Made by a program: the position numbers and the translations under genes. Under the pieces are notes generated by a model. The model worked only from the letters and a program-made list of their open reading frames with translations. It was not told the DNA's origin and did not search any database. This document shows positions 9,301-34,687 of a stretch of 64,000 nucleotides of DNA, one piece after another. The stretch is from IMG/VR virus record IMGVR_UViG_3300025276_000021; one strand, written 5' to 3'. The stretch comes from a virus. How positions within the stretch are numbered: position 1 is the stretch's first letter; each line of letters begins with the position of its first letter.

Positions 9301-12300
9301 TTTGCACCTATATTATCTAAGCCAGAATATGATCCAACACTAAGCATATTTTCAAAATATACATCACCCTTTACTTCAAGATCACTGTCAAAATTACCAG
9401 AACCAAGAACGTCGAGATTGTGTGTTGCTTCACGACCCGTCTTATTGATTGCAATTTTTAGTTTACCATCATATCGGAAACTATTAGCTTCATCATCGCC
9501 TGTTACAGGGTGCGGCGCACCGATGTAAACTGCGTTAAAGCTATCGTGTTTCCAGTAATAATCAGAATCCCAAACACTAATAACAAATGCACTATCAATC
9601 TGGGCCTGAATCCAAGACGCTGTGATGCCGCCACCACCATCTTGCTTTATCCAATTAGTATCATCGTATGGTGTGTTAGGCACAAGCACATGTTGAATCC
9701 AAGCCGAATCTGCAGCACTTAAAATATACGAACTATCAATAAAAGACTTATATAATGCACTATCAAACTGCGCTCTAATATGAGTTTGATCAAGATAGTT
9801 TTCTTGAATCATCCATGACTTGCTAGGCCAACCTTCTCCATTAGCCATGATTGGGGGCGTACCACCGTTATATACGCCATTTTTGTACATAGCTTTATTC
9901 ATGTTAAAGGGATTAGTTCTTACATTTAGACGCCCTTGAACATCAAGACCTATAGAATCTCCAGTGCCACCACTCAAATTGCCTTTATTGAAAGATGTAC
10001 TTTGTTGGTATGCTGTTGTCTGAAAAGTACCTACATTAGTAGCGCCGTCTGCCATAGTTTTATATTGACCAGTCCAAGCTTGATCGTTTGATAAGCCTAT
10101 AGCAACAGCTTTTGGTTCATCGTTTGGATTATATACAAGTGCGTCTGGTAATACACGCCAGTTGTTTTCTGAATCAACTCTTTGTTGAACGTAGTCTGTA
10201 TCAAACATATCAAAAACAGCATTATAAATCGCGCTTCCTGGTCTAACAACAAAGCTGTCGAGAGACATAGGATTGCCTAATGCATTATAGCCAATATAAA
10301 AACTGTCATTATCTGTATCGTCTAACCAATGTACGCTACCCGCAACAGTAAGTTTACCTGTTATATAAACGCTGTCGCCAAATAAGGCTGTAGTTGCACC
10401 AGTAAGTGAGCCAGCAATAGTTAGATCGCCTCCGGCTGTAATACTATCACTAAACTCGCCAAATGTAGCACCAGTTAAAGAACCCCCAATAGTTAGATCG
10501 CCTCCGGCTGTAATACTATCACTAAACTCGCCAAATGTAGCACCAGTAAGTGAGCCAGCAATAGTTAGATCGCCTCCGGCTGTAATACTATCACTAAACT
10601 CGCCAAATGTAGCACCAGTAAGTGAGCCAGCAATAGTTAGATCGCCTCCGGCTGTAATGCTATCACCGAATTTACCATAAGAAGCTATATCTAGATAGTT
10701 ACCGCCTTTGATATATCCGCTAGTAACATCTAAATAATTACCGTTGACTATTACATCTTTAGCTACACTTAAAGAATCGCCTAGTGTTGTAGTTCCCTTA
10801 ACAATTAAGTCACTATCAATAATTACGCTATTTTTGAAACGTGAGGGCGCGACAGATATAACAGGCTTCGGTTGAAGTTTAAGATAAGCGCCGAACGGAA
10901 TGCTAGTGCCAGATACTGCACCCCAAAAAGATGGATCATAATTATCTGTTGCGGGATCGCCTGTATTATTAAGAGTTATGACACCCGCACTAAGCTTAGA
11001 TCGGCTAGTACCCTTGAGAGTACTAACATTAGTAGTGTCTGTAATGTCTCTGAGACTAAAACTATCTCCTTGAGGACCAATAGCTGAAATTGTGTAAATA
11101 GAGTCATTTAAGAATTGCCCTATTGTAGACACCGCCGGCAATTCAAATTGAATTGTTTTTCCGATAGTCAATAGACCATTAGTATTTTGAACAACGACAA
11201 CAGCAGGATTACTTTGTTCAATGTCTATTACAGTACTCAATGGCAATGCAACAGGCTCAGGAACTATTTCAATATCAACGGGTTCAATGCCAAAGATGTA
11301 ATCTCTAAGTTCTATATCATTAACATATATTGTTGCATCATAACTATCACCAGGAACAATGAGTGGTGTTCCGGAGACGCCAGTGCCATCAGTCATCACT
11401 CCACTCTTATATCCAAAGTGAATTGTACCACCAGAAACATCAAGCGCACCTCTAGCATATGATCTACCTATTGCAACTTTCGTATTATTGCTTTCGCCGA
11501 CGAGATTTGAACTTGTTGGATTACTCAAAACAATTTGATTTGCGTGTCCACCGGGAGGATTAGTTAGTGTTGTTTTCTGACCTAAAAGAAATACGGGCTT
11601 ACTTAATGTTGTTGCAATTCTATTATCTTTACCAATCACATATGCATTTTGCAGATTATGAGCAGCGGAATCTACAATATTGTCTCTACCGATAAAGAAA
11701 TTGCCTGATCTGGTGCCGGTTGTTCCGTTCAAAGACGATCTATCAGAATCTTTATTACCTTCGCCTATAAAGACTGAATATGATCCTTTAATATGATTCG
11801 AACCAGTGCCCATTGCTATCGATACACTGTTGGCTCCGATTATTTTTGTATTATTACCGCCTATAGATATTGATCTAGAGCCTGATATAGTGTGATTTGT
11901 ACCACCTATTGCAATTGCACGACTACCTTCAATAGTACCACTCGCATTTAATGCAGTTGCGTATGTGCCCGAAATCGTAGTACTGCCTTGTACATTAAAT
12001 GCTGCGGCGTAGTTAGCTTCTAATGTGACGGCTCCTGCACCACCGATAATTGTGTTTCTTTGTGATTTTATTCTGGATCCAGAAGCTGCAGATATCATAC
12101 TGGAATAATCTGAAGTACTGTCTATCTGCGAACTAACGCTGTTTAATATCATACTATATGATGGTTGAGAACTCTGACCTACACCACCTATATTAACACT
12201 TTGACCGCCAAGGATAATTGATTTTGTGCCATATATATTACCGTCAAACGCGCCTATGACAGTTGAATATGATCCTAGACTATCAACTTTCGATGTACTG

Positions 12301-15300
12301 AAAGCATTTGCTACCATAGAATAATCACCAGCAGCATGACTTGTATTACCGCCTAAGACTGTACTATAGTCTCCGATAACTTTATTTTTATAACCAATAC
12401 CAATAGAATGTGCGCCCATAGAATCGTTACTGTGTTGCGAGGCAATTATTTGTCCTGCTCTTAAAATACCACCTTCAGGATAATATGTGAATAAACTTGG
12501 AGCGGCATTTACACCACCTGCTGATCTGTATTGTGCAAAACTACTAGTGCCTGCAGCAGAATCAAAATGATCTACCAAATTTTTATAATTAGAGCTATAG
12601 TCACCTCTTACTAAAATATCGCCCGTTATTTCTAAAATATGATTTGGCGCGGGTGTATATACACCAAGATTTTTATTTGGTTCGCTATATGTAGTTTGAA
12701 TTCCATCGTCTATCCATGGATTTGTATTTTCTACACCATTTGGGCCGCGCTTGAAGAATGAACCTTCATAAATTAAATCGCCTTTAACAAGAAGGTTACC
12801 AACACCAACTGAAATACCAGCTTCTACAAGATCGGAATCACTACCGATAGTAACACTTCCTTCTTGGATAGACATAAAGTTATCCGCTGTAGTTGGTACC
12901 CATGTCTTAGAGCCTGTACCAACACCTAAGTTAAAGCCCACAGAGTTATCGCCGCGTATATCTAGATTTTTACCGAAAGCGAATGAGTTTGTGTTGCCTG
13001 TTGCAATTGTAGAGCCAGAGCCAAAAGCGAAACTGAGGTTTGCGCCGACATTATGCCCTTTACCCAGAACATAAGATGCATTTCCAGACACTACATTAGG
13101 TGTTCCTGCTTCACCGCCGATTGCGATAGATGCTGATCCTCCAACAATATTATAATTACCTATACCAATAGACAATTCTGCAACACTGTTATTTGAACCT
13201 ATTGCTATAGAGTTATTACTATCTGCTAAGTTTAATTTACCTATTGCGATACCAATGTCTGCATTTACGACATTTAGTTCACCAATCGCAATACCTGTTG
13301 TAGGATTTGTTGAATTAAAAGTCGGTTCCCAGTGATACGCTGCATAATTGCCAGGGCCCTGGAAATCAATTACTTCATTATCTTTACCAATAGCTATAGA
13401 ATATGCACCAGAGTTTGCTTGGAATGTACCAACTCTATTTGTTTTACCTACTGAAAAGCTGTGTGGAGCATATGCGCGTGATGTATCGCCCGCAGCAAAA
13501 GAAAATATGCTTGCGCGAGTATTTTTACCAAACGCTGCAGAGAAACCACCAAAAGCAGATGGTTCATTGCCCGCGATATCAGTAAAGTCAAAATAACCAG
13601 CTCTAAATCTAGCTTGTGTTGTATCAAAAAGAAGCCTTGACTTATCACTATCGTCAGAAACAGTTGGATATCCAAGGCTAGCTAAAATTTCGTTTTGTGC
13701 AGACGGCTGTAGAGGATATACAATTGGACCAGATGGAGTGGGGTTGAGTGCTGTTGAAGCAATCTGTGCTGAGAACGAAAATGTTTTGCCTGTAGCATCA
13801 ATATCGAATTTAGGATTGCTTTTACCAATCGCAACACGACTTCCAATTCCTGTCGGACCGTGTACCTTTGCCGGATCTGGAACATATTGTACATCTGCAA
13901 TATCACCAGCAGGACCAAACGGAGTCTTATCGAAAATGCCACCAGCAGTATACTTTTCTCCATCTTTGAAAAGATCGCCCGTCATATTTAAAGAGCCGTC
14001 TTTACGCAGTTCTAAAAGATTACTGTCCGCGTTACTTTTAATAGTGACTAAACTTATATCTTCGCCTGCAATTCGAGATGCTATTGCAGAATCTTTACTA
14101 ATGTCAGATTTAAATGTGTTATTTTGTAGAGTTGATGTAAAACTATCAAGTGTAGTTTCTATTCCATAAAAAGTGTGGGGTGTAATAACACCACGGTCTG
14201 TTCCGCTATAATTTCTTCCTAATGAAGAATCGCCAATTTTTAATGTTTCTGCAAATAAATTATTTGTTGTTAATGTACCGTCATTAGTTATGCGAGTATT
14301 ATACCATCCTGAATCTGCATCTGCCGCAAAACCTTCGCCACCGGCACCTGCATTACCAGCGACAATTTTTTTACCTATCTGAAGTCCAACGTCTGTTCCA
14401 TGATTAGCAGAAACACTACTACCGTATATTAAACCACTATCTTGAACTAATCTATTATTATTATCTGTAAAAATAAGTCGATGTTCATCTGCAAAATTCC
14501 AGAACATACTATCAACAAAGGTCTTATCTATGTAACCAAGATTATAATTTAATACGATGCCTTCATTCTGTGTAATAAATGCGCTGTCTGATGTAAATTG
14601 ACTTATAGTTCCAGAGTCGTAAATTACATGTGAGCCGCTTAATTTTGCAATTCTTCCACTATCTGCGTCGATAGTTGGTGTTATTATACCTACAGATGTA
14701 CGCCATTTATTTTCTGTTGCGTCCCAATAAATACTTGCTCTACCGTAAATACCCGCAGAAGGTTCTCCGTAAACTGTAATGCCAGCGCCGTCTGCGGCAG
14801 CATCATTTATTGCACTATCTGCAATGAGAATATTTTTGTCATTTGTAGAAACTACAGTTGAATTAACAATAGTTTGATCGCCATCAATTTGCAAATCGCC
14901 CTTGATTAAAACTTTGCCTGTGTTGTCGCCAATGCCAGAAGGATCGATTGTAATTGTAGAAGGACCCGTGATTAACGGCTGATAAGACGTATGAATTGTA
15001 GCGTATGTAATTTCTGCTGAGTCAGATGTAAGTTGTCCGATGTTAGCACTATCGATATCTGCGCGAGAAATATATGCACTATCAATATCAACTTGACTAA
15101 TGTCGGCACTGTCAATATTTGCATAATTAATTGTTGCATGATCAATGTGTGCGCTATCAACATCTAAGTTATCGACATGTGCGCTATCAATATCTGCATA
15201 TTTAACATAAGCAGAATCAATAGTTACATTATCAATATGCCCACTATCAAGATCCATAAATTTGACATAAGCAGAATCGATAGACACGTTATCAATATGG

Positions 15301-19056: not shown

Positions 19057-21453
19057 TTAATCTCTTTCAATCTCGAAACTACCACTAATAGATACACCAC
19101 TTCCTAAAGTACAATCTTCTGTAGTTGTTTCTTTAGTAGCATGACTGTATGTTCCTCCTTGATATATTACTCTTGGAGTTGCACCATGCAGAGCTTCTAC
19201 ATAATAATTTGCTGTTGGGGTAATACTTTCTGTCATATTGTACATATCAGTTTGATTCTGTAGTGTTCCTAGCCAAGTTTTTACATCTGACCATGTCCAA
19301 TCTCTGTTTAATTCCAATATTGTAGCAATCAATCCTGTCGCTACAGGAGTTGCAGCACTAGTGCCGCTGAATCTTCCATCTCTACTTACCGCAGGCGAAC
19401 CAGTTTGTCCGTCACTCCAACTTGTACCACCACTTTTACTCGCATATGTGTTATCATATCTAGGGATATCAGTACCATAATATCCGGGAATTGCAGCCAA
19501 AGTTCCGTCAGCTGGTGCAAACAGGTCTATATTATTTCCCATATCGCTGTAATTTACTTTGCGCTCTTTTGTACCAGTAGCATACTGATCATCTAGACCG
19601 CCTACAATAATTACTGGACTTGTTCTATTTCCTGTCTGTACCTTTATAATACCCTGCATTGAGCTATGGGTGCCACAATTATAATAATACTGGTCACCAG
19701 TAAGAGTTGATTTCGTTCTCTGATTAGGTGTCCAACTACATGTACCGTACAGGGAGCCTTGTCCTGTTGCCGTGGGGTGATTTACTTGGTTTTGATGGCC
19801 AGTTCCACTATGATACTTGATATAAAAATTATTAGGGCTGGGGGCACTTACATTAAAATTTACAGTATCGCCTCGATTAATATAAACAGTAGGATTGGTT
19901 CCGCTTACAGATCCGTTTCTGTCTGTGCCATTTAATTGCCAAGTGTTACTGCTAACTGATACTGAAATATTAAATGTTTGTGGATCTCCCCAAGTTGATC
20001 CTGCCTGTTGTGGGAAACCTGGTCTGTTTATAGTTGGCATTGCAAGTGTGCCATTGGCTGTCACTTGACCGTCTCCAAAATGTCCTGAATTGGTGGAATG
20101 CCAATAGTTATCATAGTCTGGATGATCCCATTTGACTTGTTTTTGATTGCTATTTCCTGCGGCAACAGTTGTAATAACACCAGCATCTATCATTTCCTTT
20201 GCGCTAGTGACCATGGCACTATCGAAAAATTCACTTTTAATTCTACCTGAATCGCCGTAATTACCTATAAGGTTCATAAACGCTGGTGCGCCTGCTTTTG
20301 ATGTAAAGTATATTCCTGAAGATATTCTATGAAATGCGTATGCTGTAGTTGGATGCCACGCTCTATATCCCCAACTATTTGAAGATATTGTTGGATCTTT
20401 AGTTCCGTATTTTGGATTTATAGGTTTTGCTAGATGGAATATTTTTTGAATGTCCCATATTTTATCAATTCCTGCACTCCGAGAACTAAATGCGTCAAGG
20501 ACCCATTTGTTAGCATTATATGACCAGCCATGCGTTCTACCAAATAATTGACTTCCACACTGTGTACCATGTGTGGCATCATAGGGTAATGTGTTAAAAT
20601 CTCCTAGTGTATTCTCTCTTGTACAGAGACTAGTTATAGATACTGTTCCGTAACTAGCGAAGGCAGAACTTCTACTACCTGTACTACCCCACCAACTTAT
20701 AGCCGCAGCATTAGTTGGTACTGTAGTTCCGTCCCATCTGGTTTCTAGTCTAGTTCCTGGTGAAGCATTAAACCAATCTGGATCAATATAGTATGGACCA
20801 TCATGCACAAGAGATAATAAATCAGAAATGCCATCACCAGGCAATAAATTACCACCTACATAGTCTGTAGGCGACTCACCAGCTGGTCTATTATTGATAA
20901 ATTCTATATGTCCTGCCCATGTACCGTTATCTGCAACTACTATATCAACATCTTTTCCCGTGCCGTATTTTTCAATATTTGAGTTCGTAGTGGTCGTATC
21001 GCTTGTCCATATATCTCTTTTATTCTTAGGTCCATTTTCTCTTGTAGTTCTTAACAACTGGTATCCACATCTACGCAAATCCGCACTAGTAGGGCTTGAA
21101 GGATAGTCAGACGCACTTGAGAACCGATTCCTGTGTTTAACTGGCTCGTTATATCTCCACGTAGTTTCTATTGAACAATGTAATTCATCAGAAGGTGGCT
21201 GAGTAAACTCTTCCCTGTAGTTATCTGGGTTTTTGTGTATAAACGCAATCTGAGGATTTTGTTCTAACTCTGCAGCTTCTTCCTCACTTAACCAAAATAC
21301 ACCTCTTGTAGGGCTGTGTAGTATATCATCTGTTTGACTAACTGCTCTTGCTACATAAGTTGGATCATCAGCATCACGCAAACTAACATCTAATGCATCA
21401 TATTGTTCTTTTGTATGTGTACCTAATTGATAATGAAATTCTGACATAATCAA
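19057..21453 (-). CDS. Subtilisin-like (S8) serine protease with an inserted cupredoxin-like domain
   Basis: Catalytic motifs VDIVVADNG (Asp), HGTQCGS (His), AAGNS (oxyanion Asn) and SGTSAATP (Ser). Confidence 0.85.
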   Translation of the reverse strand: MIMSEFHYQLGTHTKEQYDALDVSLRDADDPTYVARAVSQTDDILHSPTRGVFWLSEEEAAELEQNPQIAFIHKNPDNYREEFTQPPSDELHCSIETTWRYNEPVKHRNRFSSASDYPSSPTSADLRRCGYQLLRTTRENGPKNKRDIWTSDTTTTNSNIEKYGTGKDVDIVVADNGTWAGHIEFINNRPAGESPTDYVGGNLLPGDGISDLLSLVHDGPYYIDPDWFNASPGTRLETRWDGTTVPTNAAAISWWGSTGSRSSAFASYGTVSITSLCTRENTLGDFNTLPYDATHGTQCGSQLFGRTHGWSYNANKWVLDAFSSRSAGIDKIWDIQKIFHLAKPINPKYGTKDPTISSNSWGYRAWHPTTAYAFHRISSGIYFTSKAGAPAFMNLIGNYGDSGRIKSEFFDSAMVTSAKEMIDAGVITTVAAGNSNQKQVKWDHPDYDNYWHSTNSGHFGDGQVTANGTLAMPTINRPGFPQQAGSTWGDPQTFNISVSVSSNTWQLNGTDRNGSVSGTNPTVYINRGDTVNFNVSAPSPNNFYIKYHSGTGHQNQVNHPTATGQGSLYGTCSWTPNQRTKSTLTGDQYYYNCGTHSSMQGIIKVQTGNRTSPVIIVGGLDDQYATGTKERKVNYSDMGNNIDLFAPADGTLAAIPGYYGTDIPRYDNTYASKSGGTSWSDGQTGSPAVSRDGRFSGTSAATPVATGLIATILELNRDWTWSDVKTWLGTLQNQTDMYNMTESITPTANYYVEALHGATPRVIYQGGTYSHATKETTTEDCTLGSGVSISGSFEIERD

Positions 21454-23359: not shown

Positions 23360-25138
23360 TCATTTGCCGTGTACGTGATTTTTTGAACGCGGAAAAACTC
23401 CACCCGATACAGGTCTGTTTGCATAAACCCAGTTTGCTTTTGAGGGAAAGGCAATATCTTCTGTCGGTCTCTGATTGAACCATCGCAATATTAAATTTTT
23501 AGCGCCTTGCAAACTGCTCCGGTCATTAGGATCATCTGCGCCAGTGTCGTGCATCAAGTCGGATTCACCATATTCATTTAACCAAACTCTTGCTTCTGCA
23601 CAAGTCATATTTGGCCAGCTTTCAGCAAGACATGCCAACACACCGCAAACTTGAGGTGCTGCCATACTGGTACCGTTCATTTTAGTCATAAAATAACTAC
23701 TATTTCTTGGATCAGCTCCACCGGCTGAGCCATAAGTGTTAGAAGTAACTGAACCCTGAATATGCATACCCGCCGCAAATACATCTACTCTGTTGCCGAT
23801 ATTACTAAACCAACTCTGACCTTCATCTGTATCTGTTGACATTGCTCCAACTACAATAGGACTGTTGACTCCTTCACTAAACGGTTGACCACCACCTCTA
23901 TGAGAATGTAGCGCATATGCAGTTCCACTTATAGTAAATGTTGCAGTGTTATTATAATCTTGATCTGTAGAATCCACAATTTTCCAGCTTTGATTATCCG
24001 AGGAATTTGTCACAACAATACCAGCTTCTATCGCATCTTCCAGATCTGCAATACTTGCCGCACTCGAATAAGGTATTCTCAAAGCAGGGCTGCCGCCTGT
24101 TCGATGAACGCCATCTGGATAATACTGGGTAGGTACACCACGCTGGGCAAGACCAAGGGCGGTAAAACCTGTGCCAGACGTAACAGTACCTCTATAGTTC
24201 ATTGAAGTAATTGGTCCGACATTGCCGGAATCTATAGAAAAAGCGGAATTGAAACTACAATTAATAACTGTAGGATTTTTTCTGCCAGTTGCAGCATTGA
24301 TAGGCTTTTGAGTATGCCACACCCTTAAGTAGTCCCACATAAAAGATGAAATTGAACCAGAACCTGTGGTGGGATTTCCTGCAGTGCCGTCATTGGTAGC
24401 AATGCTAAATGGAGAGATATTATAGATATTTGCGTCTCTGGCCCAGCCTTGTGTATTACCAGCGACTGTAGATCCTACATGACAGCCATGATTGTTATTT
24501 GATGTATAAGTGGCAGTTACATAAGAACCGTTATCAGAATATGGATATGATGTACCAAAAGAGCCACCAGGATGAGTACCATGATTAAACCAATTCTCTT
24601 GTATAACACGACTGCCGCCAGTTCCGTCTGCATTTACAGCAAATTCGGGGTGTGCAGGATCAATGTGTCCATCTGCGATAACTACATCAACATTCTTGCC
24701 TGAGGCAGTTACCGTCAAATCTGCAGTTATCGATCTTGTGTCGCTTGGCTCTCCACCCCAAGTATTAATCTGCGCACCAGAAGCATGTCTTAATAATCCC
24801 CAATTTCTATGAGTAGATACATGAGTAACAGCGAAACCGTTTGCTGCGCTCCAACCTGTCTTATGATAGTTTTGGTTAGTCGTAGCCCATCCGCTAGGTT
24901 GTATCGACATTTCGTTAAGTTCTCTTAATGTTACATCCCAAACTCGTTCATCTTGTTTCAATGAATCTACTTCGGCATCGTCAAGCATGTAATGAGTATT
25001 ACGACTTATTTCCCGTCGATGTTCGACACCTACAGCTCTATCTGGAATATATAAATTTCCACCCGGCGTTTCCATATCTTCATAAAAAGTTTCCAAATCT
25101 TCTTTTCTATAAAGAGTAATTACCCATTCCCTAGTCAT
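23360..25138 (-). CDS. Subtilisin-like (S8) serine protease
   Basis: VDVVIADG, HGCHVGST, VDVFAAG and NGTSMAAPQVCG motifs. Confidence 0.88.
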   Translation of the reverse strand: MTREWVITLYRKEDLETFYEDMETPGGNLYIPDRAVGVEHRREISRNTHYMLDDAEVDSLKQDERVWDVTLRELNEMSIQPSGWATTNQNYHKTGWSAANGFAVTHVSTHRNWGLLRHASGAQINTWGGEPSDTRSITADLTVTASGKNVDVVIADGHIDPAHPEFAVNADGTGGSRVIQENWFNHGTHPGGSFGTSYPYSDNGSYVTATYTSNNNHGCHVGSTVAGNTQGWARDANIYNISPFSIATNDGTAGNPTTGSGSISSFMWDYLRVWHTQKPINAATGRKNPTVINCSFNSAFSIDSGNVGPITSMNYRGTVTSGTGFTALGLAQRGVPTQYYPDGVHRTGGSPALRIPYSSAASIADLEDAIEAGIVVTNSSDNQSWKIVDSTDQDYNNTATFTISGTAYALHSHRGGGQPFSEGVNSPIVVGAMSTDTDEGQSWFSNIGNRVDVFAAGMHIQGSVTSNTYGSAGGADPRNSSYFMTKMNGTSMAAPQVCGVLACLAESWPNMTCAEARVWLNEYGESDLMHDTGADDPNDRSSLQGAKNLILRWFNQRPTEDIAFPSKANWVYANRPVSGGVFPRSKNHVHGK

Positions 25139-26544: not shown

Positions 26545-26552
26545 TATTTATA
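26545..26552 (-). promoter_or_regulatory. T4-type late promoter TATAAATA restarting structural transcription after the radical SAM operon
   Basis: Exact motif overlapping the stop codon of the last cluster gene, about 32 nt upstream of 26513. Confidence 0.75.
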
Positions 26553-26955
26553 TCTTTTCTAGTGCCATTTTAAACTCGTCCTCATAATATTTTCTCACAT
26601 CTGGGACCATTCCAGTCATTTTTAGTGGAAATGTTATTTGCTTTATAATATTTTCGTATGTCTTTATGTCTAAACTATACTGTACAAAATGGGGATCATT
26701 ATCAGCTAATAGGTATTTATCATCTAATAACTCAAAGAAATTTTCATTAAAATCTTCAGATAGCCAAGACGCATAGCAGATCGCAACAAAATACGATTTT
26801 GCTGGATATACCCATTCGTCAATGTGTTCATTAAAATGCTTGACTGCCCATTTAACTGTATCGTCTGTCCAAGTAATATCTACTCTATTCAAATCATCTG
26901 TATGATGCTTATTAAGAAGATGATAAACTTGACTCGCTATTTTCCAATCTTCCAT
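26548..26955 (-). CDS. Hypothetical protein, last gene of the radical SAM cluster
   Basis: ORF track 26548-27009. The MEDWK start at 26955 was chosen to minimise overlap. Aromatic and acidic, with a YPAKSY motif. Confidence 0.7.
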   Translation of the reverse strand: MEDWKIASQVYHLLNKHHTDDLNRVDITWTDDTVKWAVKHFNEHIDEWVYPAKSYFVAICYASWLSEDFNENFFELLDDKYLLADNDPHFVQYSLDIKTYENIIKQITFPLKMTGMVPDVRKYYEDEFKMALEKI

Positions 26956-27838
26956 ACCAGTCCAATAATCCTTTATATCCGTTACAGCCATTATCCAAAT
27001 CCTTAACATATCTGTAATGTTCAGTTAAGCAGTTTCCAAAATATTCGCACGATGTACAGATTGGACTCATAGTTGCCTTTTCTTTTTTTGTCCAATCAAT
27101 ATAGTCTTCCCAACTATCTAACTCAAGAAAATATTCCCTATCTGCCTCATCAAATTCGAGTACACCAAATTTACCGTTTGGAGTAATGTATATATGATCG
27201 TCTGAGAATGCATTATATTTTTTATTATATGAATCTTCTATTCTATCCCAATTTATAAATTGAAACTTCATATGTTCTTCTAACTCTAACCATTTTATAA
27301 CAAAGTTCTCAAAATCTTTATGCGTCACAGTATGGGCGTTAGCTTGATTGATTGAATATGGTTTAATTTCAACAGATTTTATAGAAGAACATAGATTCAA
27401 CATATTGATCATTTCCATAACGTCTTTCTTTAGCACTTTTTCAGTAGCTAAAATTAGTACAGCTATTGGCCTAGTGCTTAACATCATATTTTGAAAAACT
27501 AGATCAGCTTTTTCTCTTGCTTCAAAATCATAAGATACTGCAAGATAAACGTCACTGTCTAAGAAACCTGGGTGCATCATAGAGTAATTTGTGTTGATAT
27601 AAATAGTACCAGAATAGTGCTTTTTAATAATTTCTTTAACTCCATAGAAATAAGATTTTTTCATTGCTCCAATTTCGCCACCATATAAATCAATGTGTTC
27701 AATGTTCTGTACTTGAGACAACAATTCGTCTAGTTTATTCAACGAAATCTGTTTCTGGTTACCTAATTCTTCAGGTGTTAGATAGCAAAAGTCGCATCTA
27801 AAGTTGCAGAAGTATGTTGGATTTACTGATACAATCAT
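26912..27838 (-). CDS. Radical SAM enzyme with C-terminal Cys cluster (rSAM 4)
   Basis: CNFRCDFC (CxxxCxxC), YGGE motif and C-terminal CTSCEYFGNC...C. Confidence 0.9.
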   Translation of the reverse strand: MIVSVNPTYFCNFRCDFCYLTPEELGNQKQISLNKLDELLSQVQNIEHIDLYGGEIGAMKKSYFYGVKEIIKKHYSGTIYINTNYSMMHPGFLDSDVYLAVSYDFEAREKADLVFQNMMLSTRPIAVLILATEKVLKKDVMEMINMLNLCSSIKSVEIKPYSINQANAHTVTHKDFENFVIKWLELEEHMKFQFINWDRIEDSYNKKYNAFSDDHIYITPNGKFGVLEFDEADREYFLELDSWEDYIDWTKKEKATMSPICTSCEYFGNCLTEHYRYVKDLDNGCNGYKGLLDWYGRLENSESSLSSS

Positions 27839-28446
27839 CGTATGTTAACAAGTTCTATGTCCATAGTAATTGTAAGTCTTTCATCATTACCGAAGTATGG
27901 AGTTACCTCATGCCAAACATGGGCAGGTATAATTACTATAGAATTTTTTTCTGTTTGTATTTCGTGTTGCGGATTTGTTCTGGCTCGCACTGTATTATTA
28001 AAAGAAGGATCGTGCAAAATTAGCTTGCCTCCATGCATATCATTATCTACAGAATCTAAGTAAAATACTGCAACCAATGCGTTACCTCTATGACAATGAA
28101 TTTGTTTATAGTCGCCCCTTTTCATAAACGGCATCTTGCCCATAGTTACTTGCATAGCATCATATACTTCCTCAAGTTCAGCACTCGGCTCATATTCTTG
28201 GAGAAGTTCTAAGAAAGAGACTGCAAAAAAATTATACAGTCTAGTCATAAAAGGATAAGTTTTTAGATTGAAATCTGAGAACACGGGAACATTCTCTAAT
28301 TCTCCAGCTTCCCTAAAACTTATTTTATTTTCAGCCATATATTGCATCATAAGAGCCTGACAAAAGGCTTTCAAAGATTCATTTTCATCATCTGTAAAAT
28401 CTATCTTCGATCTAAATATTTTTGTTGGAAATATAGTTTCAATCAT
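27835..28446 (-). CDS. Putative Fe(II)/2-oxoglutarate oxygenase (TIGR02466-like)
   Basis: IHCH, LVAVFYL, GKLILHDP and IIPAHVWHEVTP...R motifs of the DSBH fold. The MIETIFPT start is inferred. Confidence 0.8.
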   Translation of the reverse strand: MIETIFPTKIFRSKIDFTDDENESLKAFCQALMMQYMAENKISFREAGELENVPVFSDFNLKTYPFMTRLYNFFAVSFLELLQEYEPSAELEEVYDAMQVTMGKMPFMKRGDYKQIHCHRGNALVAVFYLDSVDNDMHGGKLILHDPSFNNTVRARTNPQHEIQTEKNSIVIIPAHVWHEVTPYFGNDERLTITMDIELVNIR

Positions 28447-29476
28447 AATATTCTCTTTCATATGGACTCACTTTAGCGTCAAGCCTATTTAGAGCAATAA
28501 TATCGCTTGCCATTGATTTCATGTGTTGACAATGATCTTCAACCATGTTATATTCTTTTAAGTCTTTTATAGTTTTTGAACACCCATTACATATCTCAAA
28601 CATAGGACAAGAAAAACACGCTTTTTTTAAACTCATTAAATTTATATCATTCTTTAATGGAGTTGTAAAGCCACCTTTCATTTCATAATCGAAATCAATA
28701 GCTTTGTCTAAATCGTCACCAAAAGCGCCACAAGAGTAGTAGTCACCTTCCGGCTGTATCGTGCGAATATGACTATCACAATCTCTGGCCTGCGGGCAGA
28801 TCGTTACGCCGCCGCGTAATCGTTTCAACATCTGTTGAGTGTTATGTTCCCAGTCAGATAATCCAGCTTTCCAAATTTCGATATATCTTTCATAAATCTT
28901 AGATAGTCGATATGGCGCTGATTGTGACCCTGAAGCCATAGCATAATTCACTTTGCAAACTACGTCCATTTTCTTTGCTAATTCTACGGTCTTGACTGCT
29001 GTATGTTCGTTTTCTTCAACAATTACTGCAATAAATGACGGTCTATATCCAACATGCTCTAACATTGCATCCGAACATTTCCAGAAATCTTCCTCTGTAA
29101 ACTCACTATAATCGCCTTTAAGTCTACCGCCGCCATATTGAAAAGATGTTGAAACACCAACTCTACGATGATTAAATAATTCTTTCCATTTCATCGGTTT
29201 CATCAAGAACGGATACAAATTAGATGTAAGTGATATCGTTGCCGGCATGTCATACTTATCAAGAAATTCTATGATTTTCCAATAGTAGTTAGGACGCATC
29301 ATAAGAGGATCGCCGCCATTAACAATGATTGTTTTTGTATCTGGGAATCTATGCAAAAACTTAAAAATCTTATTCAAATCAAGTATAGCCGTATTATCAT
29401 CTACGGTAATTTTAGATGAAGAACAAAAAGAACATTTAAAATTACAAAGTTCTGTTGGCTTGAGGATTAAGTCCAT
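28439..29476 (-). CDS. Radical SAM/SPASM enzyme (rSAM 3)
   Basis: KPTELCNFKCSFC, NGGDP, CPQARDC...YYSCG...CFSCPMFEICNGC. Confidence 0.92.
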   Translation of the reverse strand: MDLILKPTELCNFKCSFCSSSKITVDDNTAILDLNKIFKFLHRFPDTKTIIVNGGDPLMMRPNYYWKIIEFLDKYDMPATISLTSNLYPFLMKPMKWKELFNHRRVGVSTSFQYGGGRLKGDYSEFTEEDFWKCSDAMLEHVGYRPSFIAVIVEENEHTAVKTVELAKKMDVVCKVNYAMASGSQSAPYRLSKIYERYIEIWKAGLSDWEHNTQQMLKRLRGGVTICPQARDCDSHIRTIQPEGDYYSCGAFGDDLDKAIDFDYEMKGGFTTPLKNDINLMSLKKACFSCPMFEICNGCSKTIKDLKEYNMVEDHCQHMKSMASDIIALNRLDAKVSPYEREYYD

Positions 29477-30009
29477 GGAGAATTTTTAATGTTAAAGCCA
29501 AAATTCATAGTAATTCTTTCCACGCAGGGCGCTCGAAAATGTTCGACCCTATGTTCAAATTTTAAATCTTGACTTGCTAATATAACATCGTATTTTCTTG
29601 GCATGTGAAACGCTGTAATTCTTTTGTTTTCTTCCATATTTCTAAACATGATTTCTCCACCGTTATTAGGGTCCATGTCTGTAAAGTATAATAGAAAAAA
29701 TACATTAGCTCCTTCTAGTAGATCGTTATGCCAGTTACAAGAGGACTGCTCGGTGCCATTCCAAATAGAAGAATAGACTATTTTTCTTGCGTTCTCACTG
29801 CTATCATATTCTTGCAAGTATGTGTCGTAAAGTAGATTTGCAGTTTTAATCATTTTCTGTCGCATGCCTTGTAAGTAATAATTCCATGCGACACTAAAAG
29901 TTTTTTTGTCGCCATATCTCATATTAAACCATTTGAGTTTCGGAATAGTATCCTCAACATGGACAAACATATCTGATCTATTACTTAAAGTATATCCTTC
30001 ATCTCTCAT
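29467..30009 (-). CDS. Fe(II)/2OG-dependent oxygenase (prolyl-hydroxylase-like)
   Basis: WHND (HxD), FLLYF, GGEIMF, distal EHRV and the 2OG-binding Arg in ERITMNF. Confidence 0.8.
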   Translation of the reverse strand: MRDEGYTLSNRSDMFVHVEDTIPKLKWFNMRYGDKKTFSVAWNYYLQGMRQKMIKTANLLYDTYLQEYDSSENARKIVYSSIWNGTEQSSCNWHNDLLEGANVFFLLYFTDMDPNNGGEIMFRNMEENKRITAFHMPRKYDVILASQDLKFEHRVEHFRAPCVERITMNFGFNIKNSPWT

Positions 30010-30544
30010 TCGCTTCCCTCACCCAGTAATATTCGTTTCTCTCAAAACCCATTCGTTTCATTAGTCTGCAATCATAAGGACTATGTGGTATTCTGTAATA
30101 GTTCATAGTTGAGTATATATATTCAAGCATTAGACCCGAAGGACAAATTATTTTTTTGTTGCCTAACAATTTTATTATATCTTGCCACTGTTGCTTCAAA
30201 AATTGTTGAGCTTCACTTTTAGATTTTTTATTCATATAACCTACATTTCCAATTCTACCTATTATCACTTCATTTTTAAAAATATGTGCCATGCATATTG
30301 CCTTTTCGAGTTTTTTATCACTATCGCAATGAGGCATTGTAGGTTCACTTTTTTTAGAAATCATACAATCTTCGTATATCTCAGGATCACTTTCTTTTGT
30401 GCCATACCAAATAAAAAAGTGTGCTTGTCTAGGAGAAATTCTAACCACAAACGGATGCTGTATGGGTAAAATATCTAATTTAACATCAATGTAATTAGGC
30501 AGATCAATATCAAGAGATTGCGCTGGCTCTTTGTAATCGTACAT
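29999..30544 (-). CDS. Hypothetical protein in the radical SAM cluster
   Basis: ORF track 29999-30583. The MYDYK start at 30544 is inferred. It overlaps both neighbours. Confidence 0.7.
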   Translation of the reverse strand: MYDYKEPAQSLDIDLPNYIDVKLDILPIQHPFVVRISPRQAHFFIWYGTKESDPEIYEDCMISKKSEPTMPHCDSDKKLEKAICMAHIFKNEVIIGRIGNVGYMNKKSKSEAQQFLKQQWQDIIKLLGNKKIICPSGLMLEYIYSTMNYYRIPHSPYDCRLMKRMGFERNEYYWVREANER

Positions 30545-31565
30545 TGTCGATATATCTGTGCGTAATTTTGTAGACACATTCATCTAAAACTTCCTCTGCG
30601 TGTTTATAGTCATGCGACATAAAACAGCCTAGAGTACATCTTTGAAAATACTCACATGTAGAACAGTTATATTTTTCTACAAATGCCTTTTCTATAGGAG
30701 TATTATCCATAGGTTGTATATCTGTTTTATACATTGCTTTATCATCAGGCTCTTGAACTAAGTTTCCACATAGACACATAGTTCCATCTTCCAACACAAG
30801 TTTTGATGATCTGCAACTAATGCAGTTTTTTTCATTTTCAATCCAAGAACGAATAGGATCAATTTTAGGGTAGTTATCTATAAAGTGTTTGAATATATTC
30901 AGCATGTCTTGGTCTGATGGTGCGCTTCTTTTCGCTTGACAATCTGGCATATAATAGTCTGCGTATAGATAAATGCCATCGTCATATAGTTGACGTAAAA
31001 CTCCCTCTGTCTCTTTTAACCAAAATTTTATATTCGGCCTAGTGAGCAAAATACCAATACCATCTAACTCATCTTTAAAGTATTTGATATTTTCTAAGAA
31101 TATTGCTAAATTCGGTTTATTGAATCTGCCAGCAGGGTCGTATGAAGTAACAAGTTTACTTTTTATGCCATGAGAACGACAATATGAAAGCAAATCATTA
31201 ATTTGGTCTCTTTTACTTACCACTAAATTAGTGACCCAATTAATTCTTGTTTTTTTATTATATTTTTTTCCTAATTCTCCAATACCTTTGGCGAGATCCT
31301 TATAATCAGAGAATAGAGATGAATTGAATATCTCATCTGCAAAAATTTCTCCACCCATGATATTAAATACAACATTGATTCTATTTTCAGTTTTTAGAAA
31401 ATCTTCTATGGGAACAAGTTTATCTAATACAGTATCAATTCCTACAATGTTATCGTGATTTTGCCAGCAGAATGGACAAGATAGATTGCAAAATTCGAAT
31501 AGATGTATAGTGTATTCTTGCTGAGAGTCTCGCTTATCTCTTAATATAAAGTCACTCAGTTCCAT
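30510..31565 (-). CDS. Radical SAM enzyme with SPASM-like Cys cluster (rSAM 2)
   Basis: CNLSCPFC, MGGE, CISCR...CLCG...CSTCEYFQRCTLGC. Confidence 0.9.
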   Translation of the reverse strand: MELSDFILRDKRDSQQEYTIHLFEFCNLSCPFCWQNHDNIVGIDTVLDKLVPIEDFLKTENRINVVFNIMGGEIFADEIFNSSLFSDYKDLAKGIGELGKKYNKKTRINWVTNLVVSKRDQINDLLSYCRSHGIKSKLVTSYDPAGRFNKPNLAIFLENIKYFKDELDGIGILLTRPNIKFWLKETEGVLRQLYDDGIYLYADYYMPDCQAKRSAPSDQDMLNIFKHFIDNYPKIDPIRSWIENEKNCISCRSSKLVLEDGTMCLCGNLVQEPDDKAMYKTDIQPMDNTPIEKAFVEKYNCSTCEYFQRCTLGCFMSHDYKHAEEVLDECVYKITHRYIDNVRLQRASAIS

Positions 31566-32226
31566 TTAATGTGTCCGCTGAAATACCCCAAGTTAGTATG
31601 AACATGGGATTGTTTTCGTGCGCCCAGAAACTATACATGCCTTTTCCTCCAAACATATAGTCGTTAAAGTATTTTGAATAATATTTTAGATTATCAGTTT
31701 CTACAGAATTGTAATAGTAAAAAAATCTTTTGTTTTTGAGGAGACTGACGAAATTTATCCCTTTAATATCATCTGTAGGATCTTCAGGGTGATCAGTAAC
31801 AAATTTTTTCAAGTCATCGTCCTGTATGATATACATATTATATAAAGTTAGAGAATCTAGTTTAGACGTAAAATTTTTCAATTCTTCCCGATGATCTTCA
31901 ATAAACTTTGCAATACAAGGATAACATTGATCGACAATAACTGGAAGCTTTTTGTATATCAATAAAATGTCAATTAATACATTTTCCAAAACATCTATAT
32001 TTAATATCTGAGTAAATTTCAAATAGTGAGATGCCAATTCAAATAAATCGCTTTCTCCTATTTTAATATCGCAAGGTATTTCTAAATTGCTAAGGTATAC
32101 AAGTAAACTTTCGCCTTGCAATTTTGAATTTTCGTAGTCAATTAAAAATTTAGTTTCCTTGTCTGTAAAATATTTTTTTAAATCTTCAATACCCAAAGGG
32201 GCTGTTACCATAATAATTTCGCTCAT
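31552..32226 (-). CDS. Hypothetical protein directly downstream of the putative substrate gene
   Basis: The likely true start is MSEIIM at 32226, with an AGGAGA RBS. The longer track start overlaps the substrate gene. Confidence 0.75.
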   Translation of the reverse strand: MSEIIMVTAPLGIEDLKKYFTDKETKFLIDYENSKLQGESLLVYLSNLEIPCDIKIGESDLFELASHYLKFTQILNIDVLENVLIDILLIYKKLPVIVDQCYPCIAKFIEDHREELKNFTSKLDSLTLYNMYIIQDDDLKKFVTDHPEDPTDDIKGINFVSLLKNKRFFYYYNSVETDNLKYYSKYFNDYMFGGKGMYSFWAHENNPMFILTWGISADTLNGTE

Positions 32227-32233
32227 AATATAA

Positions 32234-33061
32234 TTATCTCCTACCTCTTGCCGAGTGACATGACGAGTGGCATGATGAATGACACACACTCTCACTAATG
32301 CTTATTCCACTTCCTAAATTAGCTACACTAAACCATGCATCATAAAAATTCTGAAAAAGTTCTTCTAATTTTTCGTCTGTCAGTAAATCGTTTTGTGCAA
32401 TTGGATTTGCAACATCAGAAGAATCGATTTCAAAACCATATTTATGATGTAAGATTGCAAAACCACTTGCTGTGACTGATGTATTTACACGCGCCGCACG
32501 GCGTAATTCTGTACTATATTTAATAGTTGCAATAGCGCAGTAATGTTGCAAAAATTCATGTGTTAAAGGAGAACCATCATCATCCACTGTTGGACCATAT
32601 ACGTTATGAGTAACTTTAAATGCTTCCCTAGCCACATCTGAGATAAAAACAACATCGCCTGTTCTTGCGCTGTTTGCGTCTGTAGTACATGCTATTTGCC
32701 AATCGCAAGCAAAATTTCTATTTAATAGTGCGGCTGCGGTCGCTGCTGGGCTTTTCGCTGGAAGAGAGATATTGCCGCCAGGGCCTTGAACAATTCTTGT
32801 AAAATTGATTTTTCTAACCCGTGTATATTGATTAACATCTTTCAGTAAAGCATTATAGATATCTTGAGCAGTTATTGGAGAATCTTTCAGATCTGGTATA
32901 GATGTTATTCCGGTAGTCGTACTACCATACAAGGATGGCAATAAGGTAGGTGCAGGTGATGTATTTTCTCCGTAGACGATATGATTATTTATTCTGTCTG
33001 TAACAAATTCTTTATATTTTGTTAGTGTCGGATTTTCTGTTGCTGGGTTACTGATTGCCAT
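32234..33061 (-). CDS. Putative precursor/substrate protein with a C-terminal (CHSS)-repeat core
   Basis: Ends in VCHSSCHSSCHSARGRR. It has a strong AGGAGA RBS, sits among the rSAM genes and has no enzyme motifs. Confidence 0.7.
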   Translation of the reverse strand: MAISNPATENPTLTKYKEFVTDRINNHIVYGENTSPAPTLLPSLYGSTTTGITSIPDLKDSPITAQDIYNALLKDVNQYTRVRKINFTRIVQGPGGNISLPAKSPAATAAALLNRNFACDWQIACTTDANSARTGDVVFISDVAREAFKVTHNVYGPTVDDDGSPLTHEFLQHYCAIATIKYSTELRRAARVNTSVTASGFAILHHKYGFEIDSSDVANPIAQNDLLTDEKLEELFQNFYDAWFSVANLGSGISISESVCHSSCHSSCHSARGRR

Positions 33062-33070
33062 TGTTATCTC

Positions 33071-34114
33071 CTAGACATTTTTTGCCAATTCCATCATTAA
33101 GCTCTTAGGAGCTCCACAAATATCTTTTTCCCATCCTAGCTGATGGCAATCGCCGCCACAAAATTTCGAAACTGGACAGGAATAGCATAATGGATTTCTC
33201 ATCTTTTCTTCAATAATATTTCGTATTCTCTTAGGACTATTTATAAGAGTTTGTATGCTATCATCTAAGTTACCGAATTGAAATTCTGGCGCACTGTTCG
33301 GACAACCACTAATTGTTCCATCACCATTTATAGTGAATAATTTTTCTTCACAATCACGACAAAACGTGCCGCATTTTGTCTGAGTCTTTTCAAACTTAGA
33401 ATACACATTTTCAAGAAAATCGTTGTCAAACCAATCTCTCGCACCATACTTTTCACTCTGCATATGCATTTTTAAAAAGTAGGCATCAAGTTCTTTGTTA
33501 GATGGAAATATCTCTGATGCATTTCTAGCATTGCCATTATTCGTAAGACGTTCTAAAGATACCTCTTGAACACCTAATCTACGGCACCATCTTAGCAATG
33601 TAATGGGATCTTTTTCAAGAGTATCTTTAGTCAAACTAATAAACAAACGTATAGTAATACCTTGACTTAATAATGTCTTGACATTTTTGTGCCATAAGCT
33701 ATATTGTTTATTATTATCGAAACGAATTTTACGATCCCAAGACGTGCCAAGTCTACTATTCAGAGGACCTTTGATAAAATCAATATGCTGATCTTTTAAT
33801 TTGAATACTAGATTAGTTGTTGCACCCCAACTCATACGATCCCAGAGACCATCACATGCATCATACACTTTACGCATTTGACCTACAGGTACAAGAAAAG
33901 GTTCACCTCCGTGAAACTCCATGTGTATGCTATCGTATGTCGCATCTCTTGGTCTATGAGATGCAAGGTGTGCTTCTTTTCTAAATCTATGAATCCAATC
34001 AATTATCTTATTTGGATTCCAATAGATTTTTGCACCATTACTACCGCTTGTAAAGCAGTGGGCACAATTCAGTTGACAGGTTTCTGTTGTTTTTAGGTAC
34101 ATTAACCAATTCAT
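33071..34114 (-). CDS. Radical SAM/SPASM peptide-maturase-like enzyme (rSAM 1)
   Basis: KTTETCQLNCAHC, FHGGEP, CGTFCRDC...GCPN...CYSCPVSKFCGGDC...C. Confidence 0.92.
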   Translation of the reverse strand: MNWLMYLKTTETCQLNCAHCFTSGSNGAKIYWNPNKIIDWIHRFRKEAHLASHRPRDATYDSIHMEFHGGEPFLVPVGQMRKVYDACDGLWDRMSWGATTNLVFKLKDQHIDFIKGPLNSRLGTSWDRKIRFDNNKQYSLWHKNVKTLLSQGITIRLFISLTKDTLEKDPITLLRWCRRLGVQEVSLERLTNNGNARNASEIFPSNKELDAYFLKMHMQSEKYGARDWFDNDFLENVYSKFEKTQTKCGTFCRDCEEKLFTINGDGTISGCPNSAPEFQFGNLDDSIQTLINSPKRIRNIIEEKMRNPLCYSCPVSKFCGGDCHQLGWEKDICGAPKSLMMELAKNV

Positions 34115-34587
34115 ATTATGTTTTCTATATAATCTTCAAGAGAAAAACTGAGAGTCAGGGCTTCACTATTATTAAATGCTTGGTGAAGAGTTCCTGAAGG
34201 AATATGAAAATACTCTCCTGAATTTATATCATGCATAATACCATTCATTTCAATAGTTTTAGTTCCCTCACAACAGTAAATAATAACATCAAAAGGATCT
34301 GTATGAGGCTTAAAAGAAGGAGATCCTTTTTTGGCGTAAAATAAATGACATGTTACTGGACCTTCTGTATGATTATATTTTTTAGCAAGAGCAAGACATT
34401 CCTCATTCATAGTCCGACTGAAATTTTCCATTCGTTCTATTTTTATAGTATTATTTGAATTTTTTAGAACTTCACTAAAGTTGTGTGCTTTGTGTTCTTT
34501 GCCATCAAAATCAACAAAAAATACAGCATTTTGGTCATATAAAAGTGAATTTTGTAATATAGATAAAACAGTAGTTAAAGTAAACAT
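34111..34587 (-). CDS. JmjC/cupin oxygenase (ribosomal-oxygenase YcfD/NO66-like cupin)
   Basis: CHLFY...SFKPHTDPFDVII...EGTK...IPSGTLHQA gives an HxD...H facial triad. Confidence 0.78.
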   Translation of the reverse strand: MFTLTTVLSILQNSLLYDQNAVFFVDFDGKEHKAHNFSEVLKNSNNTIKIERMENFSRTMNEECLALAKKYNHTEGPVTCHLFYAKKGSPSFKPHTDPFDVIIYCCEGTKTIEMNGIMHDINSGEYFHIPSGTLHQAFNNSEALTLSFSLEDYIENII

Positions 34588-34615: not shown

Positions 34616-34644
34616 ATTATATAGCATAAAAATATATTTGTCAA
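34616..34644 (-). promoter_or_regulatory. Perfect sigma70 consensus promoter driving the radical SAM operon
   Basis: TTGACA (34644-34639), 17-bp spacer, TATAAT (34621-34616). It lies about 29 nt upstream of the ATG at 34587. Confidence 0.85.
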
Positions 34645-34659
34645 CCATTATTTTAGGGG

Positions 34660-34687
34660 TTGACATTTCTGAAAATTCTGTTATAAT
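34660..34687 (+). promoter_or_regulatory. Divergent sigma70 consensus promoter (extended -10) pointing antisense into the structural operon
   Basis: TTGACA (34660-34665), 16-bp spacer, then TATAAT (34682-34687) preceded by TGn. Confidence 0.65.

Follow-up and report, generated by a model that had tools for sequence, protein, structure and literature searches.

We have analysed a 64,000-nucleotide (nt) stretch of viral DNA (IMG/VR record IMGVR_UViG_3300025276_000021, hereafter the window), in which a minus-strand gene for a protein of 275 amino acids (aa), called here the CHS protein, lies within a tight block of genes for radical S-adenosylmethionine (rSAM) enzymes and Fe(II) oxygenases. In the order of transcription, this cassette encodes a cupin-type oxygenase, rSAM-A, the CHS protein, p224, rSAM-B, p194, 2-oxoglutarate (2OG) oxygenase (a), rSAM-C, 2OG oxygenase (b), p308 and p153; features are listed in Table 1. 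It is flanked by fibre-like and baseplate genes (for DUF4815 proteins, a T4 gp8-like protein and a gp6-like wedge protein), and the gp6-like protein is 38% identical to that of Phage C48C1 and 32-33% identical to those of Methylophilales phage Melnitz and Pelagibacter phage HTVC008M, identities which place the window in a marine T4-like myovirus. We consider it likely, although some way from certain, that the 275-aa protein is a phage particle protein and that its disordered tail, (C-H-x-S)x3-RGRR, is a substrate of the neighbouring radical SAM/SPASM enzymes, which would probably amount to an undescribed enzymatic tailoring of a virion protein. That the tail is a substrate is well supported by comparative genomics together with one published virion proteome; that it is modified, and by what chemistry, we infer.

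Table 1. Features of the cassette and of the CHS protein in the window
Feature	Position	Strand	Remarks
Sigma-70-type promoter, TTGACA-17-TATAAT	34616..34644	-	12/12 matches; 29 nt upstream of cupin gene
Cupin/JmjC-like Fe(II) oxygenase, first gene	34111..34587	-	Pfam Cupin_2 1.4e-8, JmjC_2 1.1e-7; H95, D97, H135 conserved in 58 orthologues
rSAM-A, radical SAM/SPASM	33071..34114	-	Directly upstream of CHS protein; phrog_1802 1.9e-57; lacks N-terminal recognition domain
T4-type late promoter box, TATAAATA	33238..33245	-	Inside rSAM-A coding sequence; 177 nt upstream of CHS protein start
CHS protein (tail protein)	32234..33061	-	275 aa, stop included in coordinates; folded alpha/beta body, helical insertion, disordered C-terminal tail
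Conserved C-terminal module, residues ~216-275	32237..32416	-	Helix, strand, tail; only part common to second body family
Core, CHSS-CHSS-CHSA-RGRR	32237..32284	-	Last 16 residues of CHS protein
p224 (phrog_20767)	31552..32226	-	Follows CHS protein; phrog_20767 3.9e-56; AGGAG 9 nt before ATG
rSAM-B, radical SAM/SPASM paralogue	30510..31565	-	phrog_1802 8.3e-44; C26/C30/C33 and seven conserved C-terminal Cys including CX2CX5CX3C
p194, family without name	29999..30583	-	In a subset of cassettes; orthologues in 18 loci
2OG-Fe(II) oxygenase (a)	29467..30009	-	PF13640 4.5e-5; H94, D96, H153 conserved
rSAM-C, radical SAM/SPASM paralogue	28439..29476	-	PF04055 6.6e-8; phrog_1802 3.1e-58; C11/C15/C18 and conserved C-terminal Cys
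2OG-Fe(II) oxygenase (b), TIGR02466-like	27835..28461	-	PF13759 3.9e-9; phrog_81 1e-19
p308, fourth radical SAM enzyme	26912..27838	-	PF04055 7.4e-6; C11/C15/C18 and C261, C264, C270, C285; orthologues in 57 loci
p153, family without name	26548..27009	-	Last conserved cassette gene; present in 34 loci

A first-pass annotation of the window had described the 16 C-terminal residues of the 275-aa protein as three CHS[S/A] units and an RGRR end, encoded by varied codons, and translation of the minus-strand open reading frame (ORF) confirmed this description: the C-terminus is VCHSSCHSSCHSARGRR (also given as SVCHSSCHSSCHSARGRR), and the reading frame closes with ISESVCHSSCHSSCHSARGRR followed by the stop codon. 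The units are encoded by TGT CAT TCA TCA, TGC CAC TCG TCA and TGT CAC TCG GCA, respectively, and these differences among the three units indicate that the repeat is kept at the protein level rather than at the DNA level. The CHxxCH motif has only one real occurrence in the six frames of the window. We also considered whether CX3CH could be a heme-c attachment motif; heme-c attachment needs an exported protein, and this reading was rejected, as the CHS protein is without an export signal.

Conservation of this tail is far beyond chance. A word-indexed search yielded 35 homologues, most of them 172-222 aa in length and with bodies 25-35% identical, all of which end in [V/I]CHxSCHS[S/N]CHxxRGRR. 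When 32 homologues were aligned, mean column identity was 24%, and the invariant residues were three Cys, three His and three Arg. An all-against-all profile search among 1.84 billion representatives (50% identity clusters) detected 850 clusters at E ≤ 0.001, of which 584 were at E ≤ 1e-10. Tail statistics, which we determined for the 148 new proteins within the top 150 hits of this profile search, showed three C-terminal CHxx units in 141/148 and the exact CHxxCHxxCHxxRxRR end in 133/148. A lack of conservation in homologues, which the first-pass annotation had named as an observation that would speak against its reading, was therefore not seen. The consensus unit is C-H-x-[S>>N,A]; position 3 is free and often Gly, and position 4 is Ser, Asn or Ala, with Gly in 0/133 tails. 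The unusual length of the ~260-aa N-terminal part, to which the first-pass annotation had drawn attention, is real for the window protein; however, the typical family member has ~185 aa, and the excess in the window consists of a helical insertion of ~90 residues (residues ~94-190) that is confined to close marine relatives of the window. Going by the profile comparison described below, a leader-like role is more probable for the conserved stretch of ~40 residues just ahead of the tail than for the ~260-aa body as a whole.

The AlphaFold2 (AF2) model of the CHS protein, with a predicted local distance difference test score (pLDDT) of 79.6, has residues 266-274 below pLDDT 50. No Pfam or NCBIfam family matched the protein, and its match to phrog_35144 was confined to residues 237-275. 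Foldseek comparison of the body with the PDB gave no match at E ≤ 0.001, and with VIA-align the helical insertion alone found counterparts, which were generic helical hairpins (Z ≤ 6.4). A BFVD structure search returned family members only, for example gp170 of Agrobacterium phage Atu_ph07, and the ESM Atlas contained nothing usable for a canonical family member or for p224.

We next describe the genes that accompany the tail elsewhere. From IMG/VR we collected 80 loci by the tail motif, so that this set is no test of the motif itself, and we scored as rSAM-like any ORF of at least 250 aa with an N-terminal CxxxCxxC within 8 kb. At least one rSAM-like ORF was present in 80/80 loci, two or more in 72/80 and three or more in 66/80; the loci with a single such ORF were mostly truncated. 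Prokaryote genomes (one per species, 185,579 species) contained 3 tail loci only, with six, seven and at least one rSAM-like ORF, respectively. Occurrence of the motif independently of rSAM genes, which the first-pass annotation had named as an observation that would speak against an rSAM substrate, was therefore not seen (83/83 loci hold rSAM-like ORFs). The gene order cupin, rSAM-A, CHS protein, p224, rSAM-B ... rSAM-C, p308 recurs in marine T4-like phages and in cultured jumbo phages (RSL2, RSF1, FLC6, Atu_ph07, Phosso and DT01) and is the same in ~65 of the 80 loci. Contigs of distant homologues (25-35% identity) carry the cupin, rSAM-A, CHS protein and p224 genes in this order, with more rSAM genes after them. 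The cassette is also present in cultured phages, namely Ralstonia phages RSL2 and RSF1 and their relatives, Burkholderia phages FLC6, FLC8 and S13, Agrobacterium phage Atu_ph07, Sinorhizobium phage Phosso and Pseudomonas phage pPa_SNUABM_DT01. These isolates were reached through matches to p224 and rSAM-A and not through the CHS protein; tblastn with the window protein and with P0018 gave no match in 50,697 phage records. As examples, RSL2 ORF068 ends in CHSSCHTSCHGSRGRR and Atu_ph07 gp170 in CHSSCHASCHNSRSRR, and rSAM-A is 46-49% identical to its RSL2 and Atu_ph07 orthologues, far above the identity of the CHS protein bodies.

The same C-terminal end was found on a second, unrelated body. In 15 loci (L083 (7306-8069), L053, L058, L061, L064-066, L070, L074, L076, L081, L082, L084, L085 and L088) we observed proteins of ~130 aa, one or two per locus and mostly in tandem pairs, that end in CH[T/A/N]SCH[S/T]SCH[S/T]SRGRR. 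Alignment of the first and second families by hhalign (A1 against A4) gave a probability of 98.7 and E 1.6e-16 over 57 columns, at the C-terminus only. In L083, the second-body proteins sit after a 2355-aa protein and have a p224-like ORF and five CxxxCxxC ORFs downstream, and a hidden Markov model search located p224 homologues in most of the second-body loci. The presence of an unrelated body with the same module, p224 and rSAM ORFs argues that the mobile unit comprises the C-terminal module, p224 and the rSAM enzymes. Cupin and 2OG genes are not universal in tail loci.

Three further variants of the arrangement were noted. In L086 (7344-8051) the tail has grown to ~15 CHxx units with NVPV spacers, the end CHSNRGRR is kept, and p224 and rSAM genes are still downstream. 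In P0067 (453 aa) a glycine-rich domain, Gly_rich_2 (PF21722), is fused N-terminally to a canonical CHS protein body, a fusion that we counted in favour of the reading preferred here. In L089 (7716-8303; contig labelled uncultured Gemella sp.), which may be from a phage of a Gram-positive host, the tail ends in CHSSCHSNCHHR, without RGRR, and the locus has six rSAM-like ORFs and a p224 homologue and no cupin. A link between the cupin/2OG oxygenases and RGRR was sought and not found: RGRR persists in the second body family, where a cupin is absent, and both are missing from the Gemella variant.

Evidence for the presence of the protein in virions comes from Atu_ph07, whose gp170 is listed in the published virion proteome at 31.89 kDa, with 8 unique peptides and 35.16% coverage (Table S5 of PMC6102473); the mass that we computed for the Atu_ph07 homologue equals the listed value. 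In the same study, gp170 was detected in gel bands 1-9, with its maximum in band 1, at the top of the gel; most of the other Atu_ph07 proteins of ~30 kDa peak in bands 7-8 and a few lower, and gp170 is the only well-supported protein below 40 kDa that peaks in band 1 (PMC6102473). Neither the cassette enzymes nor p224 of this phage (gp165, 168, 169, 171 and 172) are among the listed virion proteins (PMC6102473). The gel loading buffer as described contained no reducing agent (PMC6102473), so that the high-mass form of gp170 could be disulfide-linked or otherwise covalent. Together with the folded body in the AF2 model, the detection of gp170 supports the earlier idea of a folded virion domain. 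A candidate from another virion table (PMC5468394), ORF78 of phiRP31, which lies near rSAM genes of that phage, was dropped, as no RP12/RP31 record was among the phage matches to rSAM-A, p224 or RSL2 ORF068.

Two further readings are considered here. Possibly, though we regard it as unlikely, the rSAM enzymes go beyond cyclisation of the tail, and its Cys/His units serve as points at which the protein is covalently joined to a further component of the virion, or from which a metal-bearing warhead is built at the tail or baseplate. The phage particle would then contain a covalent cross-link or a cofactor installed by enzymes, and the peak of the 31.9-kDa Atu_ph07 homologue in the top gel band would be accounted for; conceivable roles are penetration of the envelope or action against DNA-entry defences of the kind represented by HXS (described below). 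The other alternative, which appears quite improbable to us, is that the modified tail is cleaved away to yield a small product or cofactor, in the manner of pyrroloquinoline quinone (PQQ), mycofactocin and the classical RiPPs (peptides made by the ribosome and modified after translation), with the body acting as leader or scaffold. Such a precursor would resemble PqqA and MftA, the cores of which are C-terminal too, and several tailoring enzymes and a nearby S8 subtilase gene (23360-25138) would be at hand; yet the body is conserved, folded and, in the Atu_ph07 homologue, present in virions, the conserved cassette contains no protease across loci, and the invariant terminal R-x-R-R argues for an end that is retained and displayed. 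The subtilase gene (minus strand; Pfam 5e-17) is located between fibre genes just downstream of the cassette; a second S8 subtilase label, at 19057-21453 (minus strand), is a reading of the first-pass annotation alone.

The enzymes of the cassette have intact catalytic motifs. rSAM-A, rSAM-B and rSAM-C each contain CX3CX2C and seven or eight C-terminal Cys, including the SPASM motif CX2CX5CX3C, which are invariant in 40-59 orthologues; in rSAM-A the invariant Cys are C13/C17/C20, C252, C255, C271, C310-x2-C313-x5-C319-x3-C323 and C333, and its SPASM domain scored 35.5 bits with TIGR04085 (cut-off 27). By these features the enzymes belong to the radical SAM/SPASM superfamily. In p308, CX3CX2C and four further Cys are kept in orthologues, with a shorter C-terminal cluster motif, and all three oxygenases keep their His/Asp iron ligands in orthologue alignments. 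Since cluster motifs and iron ligands are kept, the cassette enzymes look active, as far as can be judged from their sequences. A sequence search of solved structures with the four rSAM enzymes gave MoaA (E 0.003) as the sole match. Homologues of p224 are present in 71 loci and in the second body family, and only P10, N47 and N158 are invariant, which is why we read p224 as a binding partner and not as an enzyme. Its AF2 model has a pLDDT of 92.1; Foldseek returned nothing for it, and VIA-align gave Z ≤ 4.8, for the first 57 residues only.

Two types of transcription signal were observed. The sigma-70-type promoter upstream of the cupin gene, which keeps its 12/12 matches in L005/L009, the nearest relatives, and has 11/12 among members of the L001 group, is the probable early promoter of the whole cassette. 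It is one of two perfect 12/12 sigma-70-type promoters that lie back to back (34616-34687) in the 131-nt gap upstream of the cassette; the second points to the plus strand, with no credible gene after it. The other signal is the late box TATAAATA within rSAM-A. Its codons, [C/G]TT ATA AAT AG[T/C], are fixed in 24/25 distinct sequences with [L/V]INSP and the flanking codons vary synonymously, which points to a DNA-level constraint inside the rSAM-A gene. TATAAATA is present at most 400 nt upstream of the CHS protein gene in 45/68 loci, where ~2 would be expected from its density in the window. Three other genes of the window (starts 15818, 26513 and 46279) have TATAAATA 26-32 nt before their start codons; one of these boxes, at 26545-26552, begins the fibre gene that follows p153, and another lies 32 nt upstream of the start of a 5142-aa ORF (390-15818, minus strand), presumably for a giant fibre or structural protein. 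The early promoter and the embedded late box together suggest early transcription of the cassette from a host-type promoter, by which the enzymes would be present first, and additional late transcription of the CHS protein gene, from the T4-type late promoter near the end of rSAM-A.

If the tail is indeed a substrate, the following sequence of events may be envisaged. The helix-strand module before the tail and the always-present p224 would present the tail to the enzymes. The rSAM/SPASM enzymes would take hydrogen from the side-chain carbon of unit position 4, and small rings would be closed at this position as a three-residue cyclophane from His-C2 to C-beta, as a Cys-S thioether, or as both; hydroxylation by the Fe(II) oxygenases is a further possibility. 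The product would be a rigid, protease-resistant tip of a virion protein, possibly metal-binding or covalently cross-linked. The residues found at position 4 (Ser, Asn or Ala, never Gly) and the common Gly at position 3 fit C-beta chemistry, with His or Cys as the partner.

An unmodified metal site on the virion protein (Zn, Fe, Cu, Ni or an Fe-S cluster), with the rSAM enzymes and oxygenases acting on another fibre protein or on a small molecule, seems to us rather unlikely. The invariance of three Cys and three His is in keeping with such a site, the tail alone is predicted to be disordered, as metal-free sites often are, and the fibres of phage T4 use His-coordinated iron. In addition, marine T4-like genomes with many rSAM genes have been interpreted simply as consumers of Fe-S, and the 12 rSAM genes of one such viral genome were noted without a substrate (PMC5332604). 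However, the non-ligand Ser/Asn of position 4 and the three Arg are conserved like the Cys and His residues, Gly is excluded at position 4, and in the loci examined the tail is never without rSAM genes and p224, even on the second body. Also, we know of no metal-site geometry with adjacent Cys-His pairs at a period of 4.

Known radical SAM systems offer partial parallels to the cassette, and two of the precedents on which the first-pass annotation drew, HXS (PMC13128918) and cyclophanes from His-C2 to X3-C-beta (PMC11499958), are both genuine. In HXS, a bacterial antiphage effector, HxsA, contains five HxS repeats with many basic residues, depends on two rSAM enzymes and a small partner, is modified on an SHRSS motif and binds DNA (Li et al. 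2026, PMC13128918). HXS and the cassette have in common a full-length protein with tandem His-x-Ser units and basic residues, more than one rSAM enzyme and a small non-enzymatic partner, and the site in HXS is of the S-H-x-S type. The two differ in that the HXS repeat has a period of 3 and no Cys, whereas that of the cassette has a period of 4, an invariant Cys in each unit, a strictly C-terminal location and an R-x-R-R end; moreover, HXS is a periplasmic bacterial defence effector, whereas the cassette is phage-encoded, with four rSAM enzymes and three Fe(II) oxygenases, and its product is virion-borne in Atu_ph07. In the NCBIfam scan, the HxsA model (TIGR03979) matched neither the CHS protein nor P0006, rSAM-A scored 29.9 bits with HxsB (TIGR03978; cut-off 370) and rSAM-C 29.5 with HxsC (TIGR03977; cut-off 267.9), and HxsD (TIGR03976) gave no match among p224, p194 and eight other proteins, p153 and p308 being outside the scan. 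By analogy and not by homology, p224 may correspond to HxsD. PADLOC gave only viperin-level rSAM and generic 2OG matches.

It is conceivable, but in our opinion very improbable, that the cassette is a phage counterpart of the HXS effector, in which a matured basic His-x-Ser array binds DNA or acts at DNA entry, be it in ejection of the phage's own DNA, in phage exclusion or in countering an HXS-type defence. The features of HxsA summarized above suggest such a role, and H-x-S units with RGRR, several rSAM enzymes, the small partner p224 and an early promoter do occur together here. Arguing to the contrary are the lack of a signal peptide and of a peptidoglycan-binding domain, the failure of the HxsA-D models to match at their thresholds and the merely generic rSAM result from PADLOC, an invariant Cys that is foreign to HxsA, and the fact that the Atu_ph07 homologue is a virion protein.

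With regard to the triceptides, HaaB, YhhB and HtkB link His-C2 to X3-C-beta on HAA, HNR and HTK motifs (PMC11499958). These synthases, as well as FxsB, XyeB and GrrM, are rSAM/SPASM enzymes like those of the cassette, and a C-beta is required at the third residue of their repeated aromatic-X-X units, a pattern that the tail displays three times as H-x-[S/N/A]. In contrast to the candidate substrate described here, triceptide substrates are short leader-core peptides with no invariant Cys in their motifs, and the maturase families XyeB, GrrM, FxsB, YhhB and AmcB gave 15.7-28.9 bits against cut-offs of 310-450, mostly over the N-terminal rSAM core. The maturases of ranthi- and sactipeptides are similarly distant (PapB 37.7 bits against 340, AlbA 16.8 against 850), although rSAM-A aligns to PapB over its full length (residues 7-325 of 347); CxxxCxxC begins at residue 13 of rSAM-A, which leaves no N-terminal RiPP recognition element. 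PapB with freyrasin (CX3D), SCIFF and QhpD/QhpC share with the cassette a periodic Cys core and rSAM/SPASM enzymes with two auxiliary clusters; the acceptors in ranthi, sacti and QhpD chemistry are Asp, Thr or Glu, whereas the acceptor in the cassette would be Ser or Asn.

The best NCBIfam match of rSAM-A was to the anaerobic sulfatase-maturating enzymes (anSME, TIGR03942), at 2.2e-10 over residues 9-325 and 40.1 bits against a cut-off of 349.45. Like rSAM-A, anSME has ~350 aa and the minimal rSAM/SPASM architecture, lacking a recognition domain, and it acts on Cys or Ser in a full-length protein; the cassette differs in having three units, four paralogous enzymes and no sulfatase. Compared with the anSME target, C/S-x-P/A-x-R, only the last unit of the tail, C-H-x-[S/A]-R, offers the Arg at +4, and position +2 is occupied by S or G. 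The CXXX-repeat maturase (TIGR04115) scored 27.7 bits against 350, over residues 8-74 only. The rSAM enzymes, with their full SPASM Cys sets and with best weak matches to anSME, DynA, PapB and CbpB, are of the peptide- or protein-maturase type.

Several observations weigh against the view that the tail of a particle protein is modified by the neighbouring enzymes. Scores of the cassette enzymes with anSME, DynA, PapB, CbpB, HxsB/C, FxsB and the CXXX-repeat maturase were 15-51 bits against NCBIfam cut-offs of 268-850, all so far below the curated values that the cassette is a member of none of these families, and the rSAM enzymes are without a recognition domain. What p224 does is a matter of conjecture, and its predicted fold matches nothing solved. 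As Cys and His are well-known ligands of metals, their invariance would also be explained by an unmodified metal site, and the position of gp170 in band 1 could be due to plain disulfides. Also, the RSL2 record marks the neighbouring ORF065, and not the CHS homologue ORF068, as a virion protein. Finally, the late box is farther from the CHS protein start (177 nt) than the 26-32 nt seen at the three other genes of the window.

Maturation by radical SAM enzymes is known for RiPPs, for a few bacterial enzymes and, since 2026, for one bacterial antiphage effector; in the literature we found no description of it for a virus particle protein, no searchable paper with the motif string and no paper describing the present system. 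Genes of the cassette are merely listed as accessory genes for FLC6 and S13. The cassette is virus-specific and, with its 850 clusters, extends over marine T4-like phages and cultured jumbo phages of Ralstonia, Burkholderia, Agrobacterium, Sinorhizobium and Pseudomonas, and it couples four or more rSAM enzymes to one nearly invariant 16-residue tail. If this tail is modified, it would represent a new step in virion maturation, probably with a new cross-link chemistry on the Cys-His-x-Ser unit, and it would explain the abundance of rSAM genes that has been reported for one marine T4-like viral genome (PMC5332604). Because several of the carrier phages are cultured, one of them with virion proteomics, modification of the tail by the cassette enzymes is directly testable.

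The cassette also varies in gene content among close relatives of the window. In L001 (9205-12039) and L005 (9538-13468), two or three extra genes are located between p224 and the orthologue of 2OG oxygenase (a). These include a ~370-aa ORF of no family and a gene for a B12-binding rSAM protein of 556-561 aa, neither of which has a counterpart in the window, where rSAM-B comes straight after p224.

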